Shown one piece after another: positions 4,414 to 12,029 of a stretch of DNA of 64,000 nucleotides. Each line of letters begins with the position of its first letter. Position 1 is the stretch's first letter. The notes under the pieces were generated by a model. That model did no database searches. It saw only the letters and a list, made by a program, of their open reading frames with translations, and was not told where the DNA came from. The position numbers were made by a program, and so were the translations under genes. The DNA is from a virus (taxonomy: Duplodnaviria; Caudoviricetes), in the IMG/VR virus record IMGVR_UViG_3300037781_000006, positions 11,107 to 75,106 of that record; one strand, given 5' to 3'.

Positions 4414-4920
4414 TCAGACCAGCAGGATGGGATCCTGCGGTTGGAAGTTGATCACAGTCGAAGAGACTGCGAATCCAAGCCGCTGAACGATATTCCCGGT
4501 CGAAGAGGGGGCCACATGGTTCGAGAGACCCGGAGTGGTGGAGAGGAAGTGCATCCCCGGTGTGAGGCCCGTCACTTGGTTGTTCAGACCGCCCCAGTAG
4601 ACAGTGGCGGTTTCGCCAGTCAGGAAGGCTGCAAGAACAAAACCATTGGCAGGAGCCACACCCGAAGAGGCATCTGCCTTCCGGACTTTGGCGACGCCAC
4701 CGTCATTGAAGACGTTGACGAAATCACCGGCTGCGAGAGCACCAAAGGCTTCAATGGCACTGGTTTCAGCGCCAATGCCAGTGGGCATCATGGTGGGGTC
4801 AAGACGGCCAGACAAGTCCAATGCAGGGATCTTGCTGGCCTGACCTGCACCACCCGTAGCAGTGGCTTCCACTTCGCGGAAACCTCCTGCTGCATCGTGT
4901 TGTAGGAACTTATCGGGCAT
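4414..4920 (-). CDS. Virion structural protein, DUF2190/capsid-cement-like
   Basis: LAAGDFVNV...ANGFVL...ATVYWGG...GLTPG...LSTTPG pattern; within the structural cluster. Confidence 0.55.
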   Translation of the reverse strand: MPDKFLQHDAAGGFREVEATATGGAGQASKIPALDLSGRLDPTMMPTGIGAETSAIEAFGALAAGDFVNVFNDGGVAKVRKADASSGVAPANGFVLAAFLTGETATVYWGGLNNQVTGLTPGMHFLSTTPGLSNHVAPSSTGNIVQRLGFAVSSTVINFQPQDPILLV

Positions 4921-4923
4921 CTG

Positions 4924-5427
4924 TTACACTCCTATGATGGGGTATGGATCGAGGTTGATCTGGGTAGCAGAAATTGCCCAGCCGATACGGCGAATGGGGT
5001 TTCCGGCAGAAGGTACGGTCTGAGTTATCACACCGTTGGCTGAAATGAAAATGGGAGCATTGGGAGTCCAATTCCAACCACCTTCAGTTATGAGTCCGGA
5101 ACGGACCACATTCACAGTATCACCGATGGGAGTCGCCATCCGAGTGACACCAGCATAGTTCGACAGGCTGTCTGCATCCATCTGAGTCAGGAGACCATCA
5201 TAACCCACAGCACGGTAGGCGTTGATGATCTCTTGGGCTGTGATGGCCACATCCAGAGTGCCAGTCGAAGCATTTTCGACGTTGTTGAAGCCAGTTCCGA
5301 CATTCAGACGGAGAGGCTCACGCTGACTGAGAGTCAGGTTGAAGTTTTCGTCGATCCCGATCTCGTCATTCGCAATGACGATCTCATATCGAGGACCGAA
5401 AACCGCAGTGAGGTTCACATCGCTCAT
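4924..5427 (-). CDS. Virion structural protein, paralogue of 4414-4920
   Basis: Shared C-terminus: PIRRIGWAISATQINLDPYPII vs IVQRLGFAVSSTVINFQPQDPIL. Confidence 0.55.
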   Translation of the reverse strand: MSDVNLTAVFGPRYEIVIANDEIGIDENFNLTLSQREPLRLNVGTGFNNVENASTGTLDVAITAQEIINAYRAVGYDGLLTQMDADSLSNYAGVTRMATPIGDTVNVVRSGLITEGGWNWTPNAPIFISANGVITQTVPSAGNPIRRIGWAISATQINLDPYPIIGV

Positions 5428-5753
5428 TGGGTCTGATCCTCCGTGCAGTCGATGATGAAGGTCTGAGACGAGACTCGACCCTCAACAGGACGGTCGAACT
5501 GGATGTCGCACTTGAGCTTGCGAACAGGCCAGAGAGCCGTTTGTTCCTTGGGGAGAGAGATGGTGAACTCACCAGCAGCAGCATCTGTGATGGTCACATC
5601 GAGGTCAGAGATGAGCTTGCGAGCGTAGCGGACCTGAGAAGCGATGGTCCAGCCGGTGATATCCACAGCCGAGCCATTGTTGTCAGGGTTGGTGAGAGTC
5701 ATCGGGATGACGAAATCATCGCCCCGGACAAATTCGTATGTGACTTGGGCCAT
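5424..5753 (-). CDS. BppU N-terminal-like structural/adaptor protein
   Basis: MAQVTYEFVRGDDF...AVDITGWTIASQVR...G.FTISL...T..W....KCDIQ pattern; RBS GAAGGA before ATG 5753. Confidence 0.65.
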   Translation of the reverse strand: MAQVTYEFVRGDDFVIPMTLTNPDNNGSAVDITGWTIASQVRYARKLISDLDVTITDAAAGEFTISLPKEQTALWPVRKLKCDIQFDRPVEGRVSSQTFIIDCTEDQTQ

Positions 5754-5832
5754 GTCAGCATCCTTCGGTTTGAACTTGGTCTGTTTTGCTTTACCAGAGT
5801 GAGGTTTGCATGACCATATCAAACTGAATGTC

Positions 5833-5863
5833 AAGAAAAACCCCCGCCCGAAGGCGAGGGTTC
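5833..5863 (-). terminator. Rho-independent terminator
   Basis: Minus strand CCCTCGCC-TTCG-GGCGGGGG followed by TTTTTCTT. Confidence 0.8.
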
Positions 5864-5904
5864 ATTTCGTACCGCTGGATCCGAAGATCTCAGGGAGATG
5901 TGGA

Positions 5905-6018
5905 TCACCTCCCTTCTTCGAACCAGCGGGAATAGAGTTTCTGGACCCATGACGGCTGGGGAAGGACGTTCCAGCCGATCACAAGACCGATCCCTACCCC
6001 TATGAGAAGTTCAAACAT
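5905..6018 (-). CDS. Small membrane peptide (37 aa)
   Basis: MFELLIGVGIGLVIGWNVLPQPSW...; RBS AGGAGG; overlaps the upstream stop. Confidence 0.6.
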   Translation of the reverse strand: MFELLIGVGIGLVIGWNVLPQPSWVQKLYSRWFEEGR

Positions 6019-6223
6019 TCTGCACCTCCTTTGCTTCAACGGTTGCGAAGACTGCCAGATTCTTCGATTCCCAGAGGGAGCGAAGTGCAAGGGTCAGTTC
6101 TGCCGACGGGGGCAGCGTCTGGACCAGTTGCATGGCAAGGTCGTGGAACGGTTTCGAGGCTTCCTGAAGATGAGGCGGAAGGTGCTCGTACCGAAAAAGG
6201 CTTTTCACTTTGGTTTCATCCAT
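6011..6223 (-). CDS. Acb2/Tad1-like helical-hairpin protein, candidate immune-signal sponge
   Basis: FRYEH...LA..LV..LP.S.E..LA...L.ES...A pattern recalls the FxYH...P.SRE..LA.TKLEEA hairpin family; adjacent to Tad2. Confidence 0.55.
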   Translation of the reverse strand: MDETKVKSLFRYEHLPPHLQEASKPFHDLAMQLVQTLPPSAELTLALRSLWESKNLAVFATVEAKEVQNV

Positions 6224-6449
6224 TGGAGACCATCTCCCAGTCTTCGGCCAACAGATCAGTCTGGCTTGCGAGCCATGGGACTTGATGTCCGTCAGCAGTT
6301 TTCATGTAGATGTACGGCAGGGTCATCTTGCTGTGTGCATCAGGAACCTGAAGCTCCAGCCACATACCCTTGCCATTCCATCCTTGACGAGCGACTCGAC
6401 CAGAGCCTGTCTTGAGGATCTCCAGTGCTCGTGAGAATGAAAAGGTCAT
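6216..6449 (-). CDS. tad2: Thoeris anti-defence 2 (DUF2829) sponge protein
   Basis: F..AL..LK.G..VAR.GWNGKGMW...YMKTADG...PWLASQTDLLAEDW is the DUF2829/Tad2 signature. Confidence 0.88.
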   Translation of the reverse strand: MTFSFSRALEILKTGSGRVARQGWNGKGMWLELQVPDAHSKMTLPYIYMKTADGHQVPWLASQTDLLAEDWEMVSNG

Positions 6450-7612
6450 GAGGTTTCTCCAAATACTTGAGAGGCTTTCACCGTGAAACGGGAAGTCTCT
6501 CCTTCGAGTTCATCATAGATGACTGCCTGAGCCATCGCTGTCTCTCCGTAGGCTGAACCATAGAGGTCAGGCTCAGACCAGTTGGAGGCTTGTTCCCAGA
6601 TCACACCGGGGAACTGCTCGACCTTACGGTGGTGCTTGTCTCCTGTCCAGACAGTGATGTGCTCGACATCAGCGATGTCCTTTCGATACCGCTGAAGGAA
6701 TTGCATGACAAGGCGATCAGGCTTGATCTTGTCACCATGGTGTCCGAAGAGGGCCACCTTGCCGAAAATGTGTGCCCAGTAAGCATTGGGATCCATCTCG
6801 ACAGTCACATTGGACTGGTTGAAGTAGCGCCATTTGGCACCTTGCAGCAGACTGAGATAGCTGTCTCCGTCATGGTTTCCTCGCTTGATGACGAGGCGTA
6901 CATCGGAGATTTGTGCAGCGATATCAGTGGTATGGATGATTTGTTCACCCGTGGTATCCACGACTTTGAAGTGACGAGAGTCAACGTCGAGGATGTGGTC
7001 CGATCCGTGAGTGGCAGTCATCGGAACCTGTCCGTTGGCATGGAGAACATCACCGTTGTAGTACAGGATGATCTCTTGGACTTTCTCTTTCTCAACGTGA
7101 TCGAAGAGACGGCAGAGCCAGTCTTCGAGACGTTTCATGGCGATGGGAAGATCCCAGTCTCCGTATCCGGTTTCTGCTCCCCATGCGAGAGCACCAGAAT
7201 GCAAGTCATTGATGGAAATGAAGGCTTTCTTGACCCTGTTGGTCAGTAGAAGTGTGGGGGGTTTGAAGAGTACAGGAGGAGTTCCGATGAAGCGTTGAGC
7301 GATCTCTTCCATTCGCTGTTCTTCGGTCTTGGCCTGTTTGTCTTTCCGTGTGTTGAATTGGAAAGAGTAGGTGCGACCGTGCTTGTCTGGTTTCTGAGAC
7401 TTGACCCATCCAAGTCCGGGGTCTCCGTCAAAACCAAGCTCATCCATTCCGTCGATGATTGCTTGGTCTAGTCCTTCTCGGGTTTCGAGTTTGGCTTCAT
7501 AGGTCTGAATTGACCTTCGAGCAGTGGATTCATTGACTCCGAAATGAGCAGCCACAGACGAAAAGGATGGCTTGCCATTGGAGATCCAATAGTCGTGATA
7601 CTTGTTGGCCAT
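6446..7612 (-). CDS. Calcineurin-like metallophosphoesterase with N-terminal HTH
   Basis: DLH (NDLHSG), GD (NGDVLH), GNHD, HHGD, GDKHH motifs; N-terminal FSSVAAHFGVNESTARR HTH. Confidence 0.75.
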   Translation of the reverse strand: MANKYHDYWISNGKPSFSSVAAHFGVNESTARRSIQTYEAKLETREGLDQAIIDGMDELGFDGDPGLGWVKSQKPDKHGRTYSFQFNTRKDKQAKTEEQRMEEIAQRFIGTPPVLFKPPTLLLTNRVKKAFISINDLHSGALAWGAETGYGDWDLPIAMKRLEDWLCRLFDHVEKEKVQEIILYYNGDVLHANGQVPMTATHGSDHILDVDSRHFKVVDTTGEQIIHTTDIAAQISDVRLVIKRGNHDGDSYLSLLQGAKWRYFNQSNVTVEMDPNAYWAHIFGKVALFGHHGDKIKPDRLVMQFLQRYRKDIADVEHITVWTGDKHHRKVEQFPGVIWEQASNWSEPDLYGSAYGETAMAQAVIYDELEGETSRFTVKASQVFGETS

Positions 7613-7615
7613 AGT

Positions 7616-7648
7616 GGGGATCCCTTCTTGGTGAGGTCAGGGATCCCC
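7616..7648 (-). promoter_or_regulatory. 10-bp hairpin sequestering the metallophosphoesterase RBS
   Basis: GGGGATCCCT (7616-7625) and AGGGATCCCC (7639-7648); on the mRNA the 3' arm holds most of the AAGGGA SD and ends 3 nt before ATG. Confidence 0.5.
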
Positions 7649-7659
7649 TATCATGCTGT

Positions 7660-8577
7660 CTACCCGTGGTAAACTTCATTTGGAATCAGCTTTCGATGCT
7701 GAATCCAGCCGGTGAGATTGCCATGCAGATGCTGAGAGTGCCATCCTTCCGGGTTTCCGGAAGTCGGACACTTGATCCGTTCATCAGGCTTGGCTTGATG
7801 CTCGAACGGTGAAGCATGGACACGCTCATCGTTCATCAGCAGATCTGCACGCTCCAGTTCAGCAGGGATCGAACCATCACCGTTGAACGGCTTGTAGGAG
7901 ATCCGAGCACACCGAGCAGCAGACAGCTTCAGAAGGATGTTCGAGTGGTACTGTGTCATTTCTGCATCAGTGATGTACGGTAGATGCCATTCACCGAGAG
8001 TCAGATTCTGAACATCAGCACGCTCAATGGCCATGGCCACGAGATTGGCCAGATCCTGAAGGTGAGGTTCTGCTGCATGGTGCTGACGAAGCCAGAGGAA
8101 GTTGTCCCACTGAGTCGCTGTGATCAGCGTGTCGATCCACGAGAAAGGCTCCAGCAGACGATTGGGGTTCTGCTTGTGGTAGCCAGCCTCCATGAAGGCT
8201 TCAGCCGTGTCAGCAGCCACGTCACGAGCGTAGAGCCATGCTTTCTCTCGATTGACGAACTCAGGAATCGTGGCTTCTTGGTTCTTCACGTAGGCTTCAC
8301 ACTCTTCGTCAGCCTGCATTCCTCGTTGGTTCTTGCCCCAGTGCCACGGCACATAGGGAGTGTTGCGAACCTCGTTCAGCATCGTTTTCACCGGCACAGC
8401 ACGGGACGAACGAGCATTTCGACCAAAGACCCGGTGGGTCATGATCTCACCATGAATGGGACGCGGGTATCGCATCCGAATGGTGTAGAGATGTGGACAC
8501 CCATTTGCGGCAGAGGCCAAGATGACCTCCACCTGCATCTGAGGTTGTCCGGGATGCGAATACACGACGTTATTCAT
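7660..8577 (-). CDS. thyX: FAD-dependent thymidylate synthase
   Basis: THRVFGRNARSSRAVP variant of the ThyX RHRxxSxxxxSxR motif; SAARCARISY; HASPFEH; RBS GGAGG before ATG 8577. Confidence 0.85.
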   Translation of the reverse strand: MNNVVYSHPGQPQMQVEVILASAANGCPHLYTIRMRYPRPIHGEIMTHRVFGRNARSSRAVPVKTMLNEVRNTPYVPWHWGKNQRGMQADEECEAYVKNQEATIPEFVNREKAWLYARDVAADTAEAFMEAGYHKQNPNRLLEPFSWIDTLITATQWDNFLWLRQHHAAEPHLQDLANLVAMAIERADVQNLTLGEWHLPYITDAEMTQYHSNILLKLSAARCARISYKPFNGDGSIPAELERADLLMNDERVHASPFEHQAKPDERIKCPTSGNPEGWHSQHLHGNLTGWIQHRKLIPNEVYHG

Positions 8578-10712: not shown

Positions 10713-12029
10713 TTATTTCTCCGGGATGAGGTAGACCTCACCGTATGTGACTGCATCGAGGTATCCATCGTAGACGTTCTCATCAGGAACGAACCAGATG
10801 GTCTCCCAGTCAGGTTTGGGGGGAATTGATACACACAGATCGGTGAAGATGACAAGAGCTTCAGGATTGATCTCTGCCACACGCTTGTAAACTGGGTGCA
10901 GAGACGTACCACCACCAGACATCACATGGATGTTGTCGAGAGTCTCATCCTCACGGAAGACTTTCTCGAATTGGATCTGGGTGTCCCACAAGATGACAGT
11001 CATCAGAGTGGGATTCAGCTTCTCTTTCAGTGTCTTAGCGGAAGCCAAGAACTGACGCTTCTGTGTGCTCGTGATGGAACCAGACACATCCAGTGCGTAA
11101 ACCAGATGAGTCAGACGGTTCTTCCGGCCACGCTTCGGGTACTTACCCTTGAGCCGAAGTTCACCTTTCCGTTCACGACGAGAGGGACGCATGAAGGTAC
11201 GTTTCCCACCACTCAGAGGATCGGTGAGGTAGTCTTCGAAGATCTCCTCGTAGCTGGCCTTCTTGATCCAGACAGTTTTCCCTTCGGTTCTCAGGATCTC
11301 CTGAGTTCCTCCGGGCTGATCACCAGCCAGCTTGCCATTCTTGACAGCTTCTTGGCGTTCTTGCTCGTTCTCTTGGATCTGCTGCTGAAGGTCTTTGCCA
11401 GTCCCTTCAAGGGCTTGCTTGACCAGATCTTCGATCTGATCGGTGCTGGGAGCACCACTGGAACCATGGGAATTGGGATCCTTCTTCCGTTCTTTGTGGA
11501 CGATGGCGTAGATGGCATCGGTCCCCATTCCACGGAAGCGTTCGTCGATCTGCATACCCTTGCCACCGAAGTCAGTGGGAGCACCACCCCTTAGAGTGGT
11601 AACAAACCCATCTTCATCACAGGTCAGGTTGATCACATGATCACCTGCGATGTTGTAGGATTCAGGATCTTTCTCCTTGCCTCGTTCGAGGTGGTTCAGG
11701 ATCAGGTGCCAGATCTCATGTGCGATCACGGTCTTCCGTTCTTCATGGGCCAGTTGGTCCCACCACTGAGGGTTGAAGAAGATGAAGCCGTGACCAGCAC
11801 AGGCTGTCGGTATTGCAGAGACCCAGTAGAAGGAGATGTCGAACACGTAACGACTCATGCCTTTGAAGCGTTTGTCTGTGATCAACATCTCCTCCACATA
11901 GCTCCTCAATGTGTCGTCAGCACTGAGAAGATCACCGCCAGAGGCCGTCGAGGTCATCCCCGTCGAGATCTGGGTCATGTCCGGTTGGTTGGACGTATTT
12001 CCCCCAACCTGATTCGACGTGGTTTCCAT
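10713..12029 (-). CDS. DUF2201-type metallopeptidase-vWA protein (N4 gp25-like)
   Basis: AHEIWH HExxH; MIDAS DVSGS; GGGTS; downstream of the MoxR-type ATPase. Confidence 0.85.
   Translation of the reverse strand: METTSNQVGGNTSNQPDMTQISTGMTSTASGGDLLSADDTLRSYVEEMLITDKRFKGMSRYVFDISFYWVSAIPTACAGHGFIFFNPQWWDQLAHEERKTVIAHEIWHLILNHLERGKEKDPESYNIAGDHVINLTCDEDGFVTTLRGGAPTDFGGKGMQIDERFRGMGTDAIYAIVHKERKKDPNSHGSSGAPSTDQIEDLVKQALEGTGKDLQQQIQENEQERQEAVKNGKLAGDQPGGTQEILRTEGKTVWIKKASYEEIFEDYLTDPLSGGKRTFMRPSRRERKGELRLKGKYPKRGRKNRLTHLVYALDVSGSITSTQKRQFLASAKTLKEKLNPTLMTVILWDTQIQFEKVFREDETLDNIHVMSGGGTSLHPVYKRVAEINPEALVIFTDLCVSIPPKPDWETIWFVPDENVYDGYLDAVTYGEVYLIPEK

Follow-up and report, generated by a model that had tools for sequence, protein, structure and literature searches.

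A minimal Tad2 homologue apparently inserted into an older gene trio of an N4-like marine roseophage

The window analysed here is a 64,000-nucleotide stretch of viral DNA (positions 11,107 to 75,106 of the IMG/VR record IMGVR_UViG_3300037781_000006), and its parent viral record is 75,106 bp long with direct terminal repeats. On the minus strand, the window carries a string of four overlapping genes that encode a metallophosphoesterase (MPE) with a helix-turn-helix (HTH) domain, a homologue of the sponge protein Tad2, a helical hairpin protein of 70 aa (p70) and a membrane peptide of 37 aa (p37). Judged from family tests and gene neighbourhoods, this string appears to contain one bona fide anti-Thoeris-type sponge homologue, newly acquired and embedded in an older trio, MPE-p70-p37. 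We consider it probable, with considerable room for doubt, that the string as a whole is the 3' end of a middle-gene unit for nucleotide metabolism and replication, composed of the trio and the inserted Tad2. The first-pass annotation of the window had described the same genes as a 'coupled anti-immune-signalling operon' and a 'sponge array'; neither description appears to be supported by neighbourhood conservation or by the family tests.

Employing blastn, we compared the region 5800-7700 with known phages and found 75-80% DNA identity over 82-88% of it to Rhodovirinae N4-like roseophages, including DSS3phi2, EE36phi1, vBDshPR2C (R2C), DFL12phi1, Roseovarius podoviruses and others. From these matches, the source phage is predicted to be an N4-like marine roseophage of the Schitoviridae, Rhodovirinae. 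The features of the string, with the evidence for each (AF2, AlphaFold2), are as follows.

6446..7612, minus strand: HTH-metallophosphoesterase (MPE), 388 aa (phrog_704, motifs, AF2 model)
6216..6449, minus strand: minimal Tad2/DUF2829 sponge homologue, 77 aa (PF11195, solved Tad2 structures)
6011..6223, minus strand: p70, helical hairpin, 70 aa (phrog_1761, AF2 model)
5905..6018, minus strand: p37, single-pass membrane peptide, 37 aa (phrog_20849, codon-position pattern)
5834..5863, minus strand: intrinsic terminator (terminator scan and RNA fold)
7616..7648, minus strand: perfect 10-bp hairpin in the spacer between thyX and the MPE gene (RNA fold)

The 77-aa protein matched PF11195 with an E-value of 5.1e-25 and 88.3 bits (cut-off 25), the alignment spanning positions 2-73 of the 73-position profile. 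Solved Tad2 proteins were recovered with E-values between 6e-14 and 9e-12, namely SptTad2 (5.6e-14), SPO1 Gp34.65 (1.6e-13), HgmTad2/AcrIIA7 (3.6e-13), 8v3e (7e-12) and ModTad2 (7.3e-12). In HgmTad2, gcADPR is contacted by W21/N22/G23 and W87/L88/S90/T92/D93 (10.1101/2023.11.15.567273). Residues W24-N25-G26 and W59-L60-S62-T64-D65 of the window protein align onto these contact residues, all of which are kept, and the motifs GWNG and WLASQTD are conserved. The profile match, the matches to solved structures and the kept gcADPR pocket bear out the earlier assignment of this gene to Tad2.

The two conserved blocks are separated by ~12 residues in the window protein, versus 24 in SPO1 Tad2 and 41 in HgmTad2. 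An insertion of 24-41 residues between beta2 and beta5, present in HgmTad2 and SptTad2, builds the pocket for cyclic dinucleotides (10.1101/2023.11.15.567273); this long insertion, taken as 35-41 residues when used as a criterion, marks only the subset of DUF2829 that binds cyclic dinucleotides, not membership of the family. It is absent from the window protein, so binding of CBASS dinucleotides of that kind is not expected. We regard the 77-aa protein as a genuine, if minimal, Tad2/DUF2829 sponge homologue, which should keep the pocket for ADP-ribose-derived signals and not the HgmTad2-type dinucleotide site.

In cultured Rhodovirinae (DSS3phi2, R2C, EE36phi1 and others), the genes for MPE, p70 and p37 directly abut; in DSS3phi2 and R2C the MPE stop codon directly overlaps the p70 start, p37 follows, and no Tad2 lies between. 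When five complete genomes of cultured Rhodovirinae were searched throughout for PF11195, none gave a match. Tad2 adjoins MPE in just 1 of 79 viral MPE loci, and that one is the near-twin of the window. The closest relatives of the window Tad2 were found in unrelated phages, Acinetobacter phage XC38 (71%) and Mycobacterium phage Curiosium (68%), with further close relatives in Aeromonas phages and Pseudomonas phage PaBG. Because cultured relatives lack Tad2, because it adjoins MPE only once among the 79 loci and because its nearest relatives reside in unrelated phages, Tad2 appears to be a recent, lineage-specific insertion into the older MPE-p70-p37 trio.

The minimal Tad2 of XC38, which also belongs to the Schitoviridae, is 74 aa long (L176:3492-3716) and lies between the genes for ribonucleotide reductase beta and an exonuclease, with an 8-nt overlap, in a neighbourhood of thymidylate synthase, ribonucleotide reductase and exonuclease genes. 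From this placement, the nucleotide-metabolism block of N4-like phages would seem to be a site where minimal Tad2 genes have settled repeatedly.

All four open reading frames (ORFs) of the string matched PHROG families (E 1e-24 to 1e-92), and the same 388/77/70/37 set was called independently on 8 further contigs, which come from several samples. The length of p37 was taken from an internal ATG of a 61-aa ORF that starts with TTG; among six relatives, differences in p37 fall mostly at codon position 3 (253, versus 95 at position 1 and 47 at position 2), a pattern that indicates purifying selection on a coding sequence. Clearly, given the PHROG matches, the calls on the 8 other contigs and the third-position pattern of p37, the four ORFs are real genes and not chance frames.

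The MPE/Tad2 junction is ATGA, with a 4-nt overlap, and the Tad2/p70 and p70/p37 junctions are ATGGATGA and ATGTTTGA, each with an 8-nt overlap. A Shine-Dalgarno-like motif lies 6-10 nt upstream of every start, GGAG for Tad2, GGGAG for p70 and the strong site AAGGAGGT for p37. In the terminator, located ~45 nt beyond the last stop codon, a G+C-rich stem of 11 bp encloses a 4-nt loop and a U5 tract follows; the fold of -30.8 kcal/mol has a z-score of -3.15, and none of 200 shuffled sequences was as stable. The GC-rich hairpin and U-tract that define a Rho-independent terminator are therefore both present 3' of p37. Overlapping start/stop junctions and a closing terminator, as first described, were thus found in the ORFs, the junction sequences and the fold.

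Directly upstream of the MPE gene, at a distance of 47 nt, is thyX, and the co-directional neighbours include thyX, a dCMP deaminase gene and MazG-like genes. (The label 'N4 gp30-like' in older annotation belongs to the thyX gene, not to MPE.) In the spacer, the arms GGGGAUCCCU...AGGGAUCCCC form a perfect 10-bp hairpin with the 3' arm adjoining the MPE ribosome-binding site; the inverted repeat, GGGGATCCCT / AGGGATCCCC, encloses a 13-nt loop, ends 3 nt upstream of the MPE start codon and folds with -20.7 kcal/mol (z -3.38). A scan for promoters and terminators together with RNA folding found neither a U-tract after this hairpin nor a promoter-like site in the 47-nt spacer. Possible roles of the hairpin are in translation, in RNA stability or as a signal for a phage polymerase. 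Given the short gap (47 nt), the hairpin without a U-tract and the lack of a promoter-like site, the string seems to be the last part of a longer co-directional run of nucleotide-metabolism genes and not a self-contained operon. Of the operon proposed at first, the overlaps and the terminator stand, and its self-containment does not, as thyX lies 47 nt upstream with neither a hairpin and U-tract nor a promoter-like site between.

p70 matched phrog_1761 with an E-value of 2.4e-30, and its AF2 model is of high confidence (pLDDT 94.8), with helices at residues 3-9, 17-36 and 41-69. The family comprises 4,990 clusters at 50% identity with E<=1e-3 (1,508 with E<=1e-10) and occurs in 281 phage records, from phages of Vibrio, Erwinia, Acinetobacter, Gordonia, Mycobacterium, Microcystis and other hosts. 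The phrog_1761 profile has 148 positions, and p70 covers 79-142. Some family members (P0159, P0163, P0166, P0168 and P0169) are tandem hairpin duplicates or have long N-terminal extensions; these forms hint at a hairpin dimer or four-helix bundle as the functional unit. In 80 p70 loci, MPE was present in 3 and Tad2 in 2. Clustering of 785 neighbouring ORFs from these loci and Pfam searches on 147 immediate neighbours revealed no recurrent partner, only portal, terminase and replication genes here and there. By its distribution, p70 resembles a mobile accessory gene, and a counter-defence role is plausible.

In the first-pass annotation, p70 was called an Acb2/Tad1-like hairpin, for which the Pfam family is PF24729. 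The p70 family gave no match in Pfam, NCBIfam or PDB sequences (in NCBIfam, the other three proteins of the string had no match either), and p70 itself did not match PF24729 even at E<=1 (cut-off 27 bits), while T4 Vs.4, the positive control, scored 71 bits. In the field, a protein is included in Acb2 when its HHpred probability to 7UQ2 (T4 Vs.4) or 8H39 (PaMx33) exceeds 0.9. Our profile-profile comparison covered these two reference branches of Acb2. Using hhalign, an 80-sequence profile of p70 gave a probability of 2.1% against a 30-sequence T4 Vs.4 family and 0.3% against a 68-sequence PaMx33-type Acb2 family (67 of them viral-contig homologues); in the positive control, the Vs.4 hidden Markov model (HMM) retrieved PaMx33 Acb2 at 1.4e-9. 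The identification of p70 as Acb2 was therefore rejected, and what is left of it is a generic hairpin resemblance. Against PDB sequences, the p70 HMM found designed repeat proteins only and no solved sponge. A Foldseek search of the PDB with the p70 model returned nothing at E<=0.001, a wide VIA search returned generic hairpins with Z<=8, neither Acb2 nor Tad1 being among the matches listed, which does not in itself count against them, and an Atlas search for p70 without PF24729 gave no usable match.

Among the alternatives, the one that survives best, unlikely as we consider it, is that Tad2 and p70 are both sponges, p70 being a divergent or new one with a ligand other than those of Acb2/Tad1, and that MPE and p37 are bystanders. 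It fits with the small, confidently modelled helical hairpin of p70, with the position of the Tad2 insertion right beside p70 and with the tandem-duplicated forms, which suggest an oligomeric unit. After its own family, p70 also retrieved many BFVD models annotated as 'Acb2/Tad1 hairpin' by Foldseek, although these matches were weak (E 0.06-1, TM 0.57-0.74); the top-listed PDB matches in Foldseek and VIA were generic helical hairpins. PF24729 occurs in 14-18% of the members of the nearest ESM-Atlas clusters and is the commonest Pfam match among the p70 family, there at sub-threshold level only (6 of 139 members, best E 0.0058); for p70 itself, the PF24729 search, the two hhalign comparisons and the HMM search for solved sponges all argue against the proposal. 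The family is huge, spreads over phages of Proteobacteria, Actinobacteria and Cyanobacteria and has no fixed neighbours, as is typical of counter-defence genes, yet the two p70 loci with a nearby Tad2 are too few out of 80 to speak for an array. A related possibility, which we rank below the former, is that p70 represents a new counter-defence family, either a hairpin sponge for small molecules or a direct inhibitor of host immunity, and forms with p37 and MPE a fixed Rhodovirinae module that recruits sponges such as Tad2.

p37 matched phrog_20849 (E 1.2e-24) and is restricted to Rhodovirinae (23 records). It has a hydrophobic N-terminal helix followed by the conserved motif GWN-x-x-PQP-x-WV-x-x-LYSRWF; that it is a membrane peptide, as proposed from the sequence at first, agrees with this conserved single-pass layout. 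Pfam and PHROG searches gave no match of p37 to a holin or spanin family. In DFL12phi1, the gap after p37 contains a spurious-looking ORF (L096:5577-5729) whose translation resembles read-through of a tRNA-like sequence, and the same was seen in R2C; the window itself contains no tRNA genes.

The MPE is composed of an HTH domain (residues ~1-60), a poorly modelled linker (~60-125) and a binuclear MPE domain (~126-385). It matched phrog_704, 'DNA repair exonuclease', with an E-value of 1e-92; in Pfam, there were weak HTH_28/HTH_23 and Metallophos matches, the latter with 15.6 bits and below the cut-off of 21.5. In an alignment of 44 homologues with identities down to 26%, D136, H138, G187-D188, G245-N246-H247, H291-H292 and H327 are invariant, and all five metal-binding motifs (DxH, GD, GNH[DE], H and GHxH-like) are present. 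Based on the AF2 model (pLDDT 83), Foldseek found 214 PDB matches at E<=1e-3 and confirmed the alpha/beta sandwich fold. The invariant motifs and the fold together corroborate the initial description of the protein as a calcineurin-like phosphoesterase. Structural ranking placed PolD DP1, Mre11 and SbcD first (Foldseek E 2e-8 to 1e-5; VIA Z 13-15), with PolD DP1 at the top in VIA (Z 15.3 over 222 residues) and Mre11, SbcD, LpxH, MJ0936 and GpdQ at Z 12.6-14.4. The fold ranking was also considered as a guide to the substrate of MPE, and for this purpose it did not discriminate.

The MPE family was found in 2,006 phage records, mainly of T1-like, Chi-like, Vibrio and marine phages. We inspected 79 MPE loci. 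p70 and p37 accompany MPE only in the six closest Rhodovirinae; 73 of the 79 lack p70 and 78 lack Tad2, and relatives with 58-72% identity to the MPE have other genes downstream. The link between MPE and sponges that had been expected is apparently confined to the window and its near-twin, and lack of such a link in other phages is what had been named beforehand as speaking against it. In 38 of the 79 loci, with distant homologues (28-33% identity; within L106-L174), MPE lies directly downstream of an endolysin and an Rz-like spanin on the same strand, and this synteny with lysis cassettes was also seen in Escherichia phage aaroes (L007), Rhodobacter phage RcPutin (L008) and T1-like and Chi-like phages. 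For phrog_704, phrog_1761, phrog_20849 or the function of the T1-like phosphoesterases, we found no literature.

Such synteny raises the alternative that the trio has a late or lysis role, in which MPE digests host or unpackaged DNA, p37 is a lysis regulator and Tad2 is an unrelated passenger; we consider it improbable. The single-pass membrane character of p37 would suit it, as would a locus whose MPE is 70% identical to that of the window (L100:1635-2512), where p70/p37 are replaced by a 105-aa transmembrane protein and a 185-aa lipoprotein-like (VAAC) ORF, a pair that resembles a spanin pair. The Rhodovirinae block, however, lies in the early/middle replication arm beside thyX, distant from the structural and lysis genes, p37 belongs to no holin or spanin family that was matched, and the lysis synteny elsewhere may reflect a position at the end of operons.

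Least probable of all is the cassette envisaged in the first-pass annotation, in which MPE hydrolyses immune second messengers and p37 blocks a membrane effector alongside the sponges: the tightly overlapping junctions, the class III cyclic-nucleotide phosphodiesterases within the MPE superfamily (Rv0805, Foldseek E 1.6e-6) and the retention of MPE-p70-p37 as a unit in Rhodovirinae favour it, but such overlaps are ordinary in the gene strings of this genome, the conserved HTH at the N-terminus speaks for nucleic acid as the substrate, most MPE loci lack p70, p37 and Tad2 and place MPE beside thyX/MazG-like genes or endolysin-spanin cassettes, p37 is confined to one phage subfamily and Tad2 joined the block only recently.

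We return to the preferred reading, in which Tad2 was inserted into a trio at the 3' end of a middle-gene unit. MPE-p70-p37 would be a trio conserved across the Rhodovirinae subfamily, and in this lineage alone a minimal Tad2 would have entered exactly at the junction of MPE and p70, with translational coupling re-created on both sides. The sponge array is replaced in this reading by a recently inserted Tad2 next to genes, MPE and p70, that are not mutually linked elsewhere. Tad2 most likely forms the usual tetramer and would use the GWNG/WLASQTD pocket to sequester the ADP-ribose-derived signals that TIR proteins make in Thoeris (gcADPR, i.e. 2'/3'cADPR). MPE would be a metal-dependent phosphodiesterase whose HTH anchors it to nucleic acid, most likely a nuclease or end-processing enzyme acting on DNA in host-DNA breakdown, nucleotide salvage or processing of replication intermediates; a role on DNA fits because thyX, dCMP deaminase and MazG-like genes are its neighbours. 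We hold the view of MPE as a nucleic-acid-directed phosphodiesterase loosely, and regard hydrolysis of small immune signals by it as less likely. p70 and p37 would be small accessory proteins, and p70 may act on a host factor.

Several observations weigh against this reading. As far as the model can tell, the fold scores of MPE do not split nucleases from small-molecule phosphodiesterases, Rv0805, MJ0936, GpdQ and LpxH being within ~2 Z units of the nucleases, so hydrolysis of a signal is chemically possible. Tad2 homologues differ widely in ligand, binding 3'cADPR, His-ADPR, N7-cADPR, cGAMP or cUMP (10.1101/2025.08.24.671296), and the exact ligand can therefore not be read from membership of the family. 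An anti-defence gene exactly beside p70, combined with the mobile, cross-phylum spread of p70, also has the look of an anti-defence island. Finally, the protein language model/Atlas and BFVD matches of p70 lean towards Acb2/Tad1-annotated proteins.

Outside the string, a pair of neighbouring ORFs (168 and 167 aa), which are paralogous, have similar C-termini and are conserved across Rhodovirinae, is located at 4414-5427 on the minus strand, and one of them has a faint Phage_cement_2 match. Ahead of them lies a conserved ORF of 109 aa with an RGDDF motif (within 5424-5834). The pair and the 109-aa ORF are decoration-like proteins located in the replication arm.

The window Tad2 is the first seen in Rhodovirinae, all five complete cultured genomes searched being without it. 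Since a marine roseophage lineage recently gained Tad2, TIR/Thoeris-type signalling immunity probably operates in marine Roseobacter hosts. A 77-aa Tad2 that has the gcADPR pocket and lacks the insertion domain offers a clean test of binding by the core fold. The analysis also corrects an assignment made by adjacency: the tightly overlapping neighbours of Tad2 constitute a unit that is older and has other affinities. Both the HTH-phosphoesterase, encoded in ~2,000 phage genomes, and p70, whose family is very large, would merit systematic assays.

Compared with known systems, p70 is like Acb2 (PaMx33 ORF24, T4 Vs.4) and the Tad1 hairpin (PF24729) in its size of ~70 aa, its all-helical structure and its patchy, wide distribution in phages, and the resemblance at the level of fold and language model is weak. 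The motif of p70 reads F-x-Y-x-H-L-P...S-x-P-F...L-x-E-x-K-[ND]-x-A-V, versus K-G-Y-R-D-L-S...W-x-x-I-x-K-T-D-x-Q-T-G in Acb2.

The catalytic domain of MPE has its best matches in Mre11, SbcD and PolD DP1 (Z 13-15, ~200-225 aligned residues), with the same metal ligands. It differs from them in its identity of 12-16%; of the two features that mark Mre11/SbcD-type proteins, a capping domain was not identified in MPE, and a Rad50/SbcC-type partner was not found adjacent to it in the window or in the 79 loci. Gp48 of mycobacteriophage A10ZJ24, a different phage MPE, damages host DNA and blunts defence (PMC12287305). Like Gp48 and its cluster-A relative Bxb1 gp47, the window MPE belongs to the calcineurin-like superfamily, has the five motifs and is encoded in the replication gene arm; unlike them, it is 388 aa long, has an extra N-terminal HTH and linker, and belongs to phrog_704. 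A specific relationship between MPE and Bxb1 gp47 was rejected (hhalign probability 0.7%).

Coliphage N4, also of the Schitoviridae, has in gp49 (L006:404-886) a Tad2-like domain as well (PF11195 E 8e-24). gp49 is 160 aa long, with the Tad2 domain at the C-terminus and an N-terminal extension of 82 aa, and its gene immediately precedes that for the virion RNA polymerase, a site unlike that in the window. The 82-aa region matched no Pfam family and did not match p70; a link of gp49 to Acb2 was rejected, as the protein is a Tad2-like fusion. The window Tad2 itself is like the solved Tad2 proteins in having a full-length domain, with ~45-50% identity over the aligned parts, and unlike the described Tad2 proteins in being only 77 aa long and in being encoded by an N4-like podovirus of marine Rhodobacterales.

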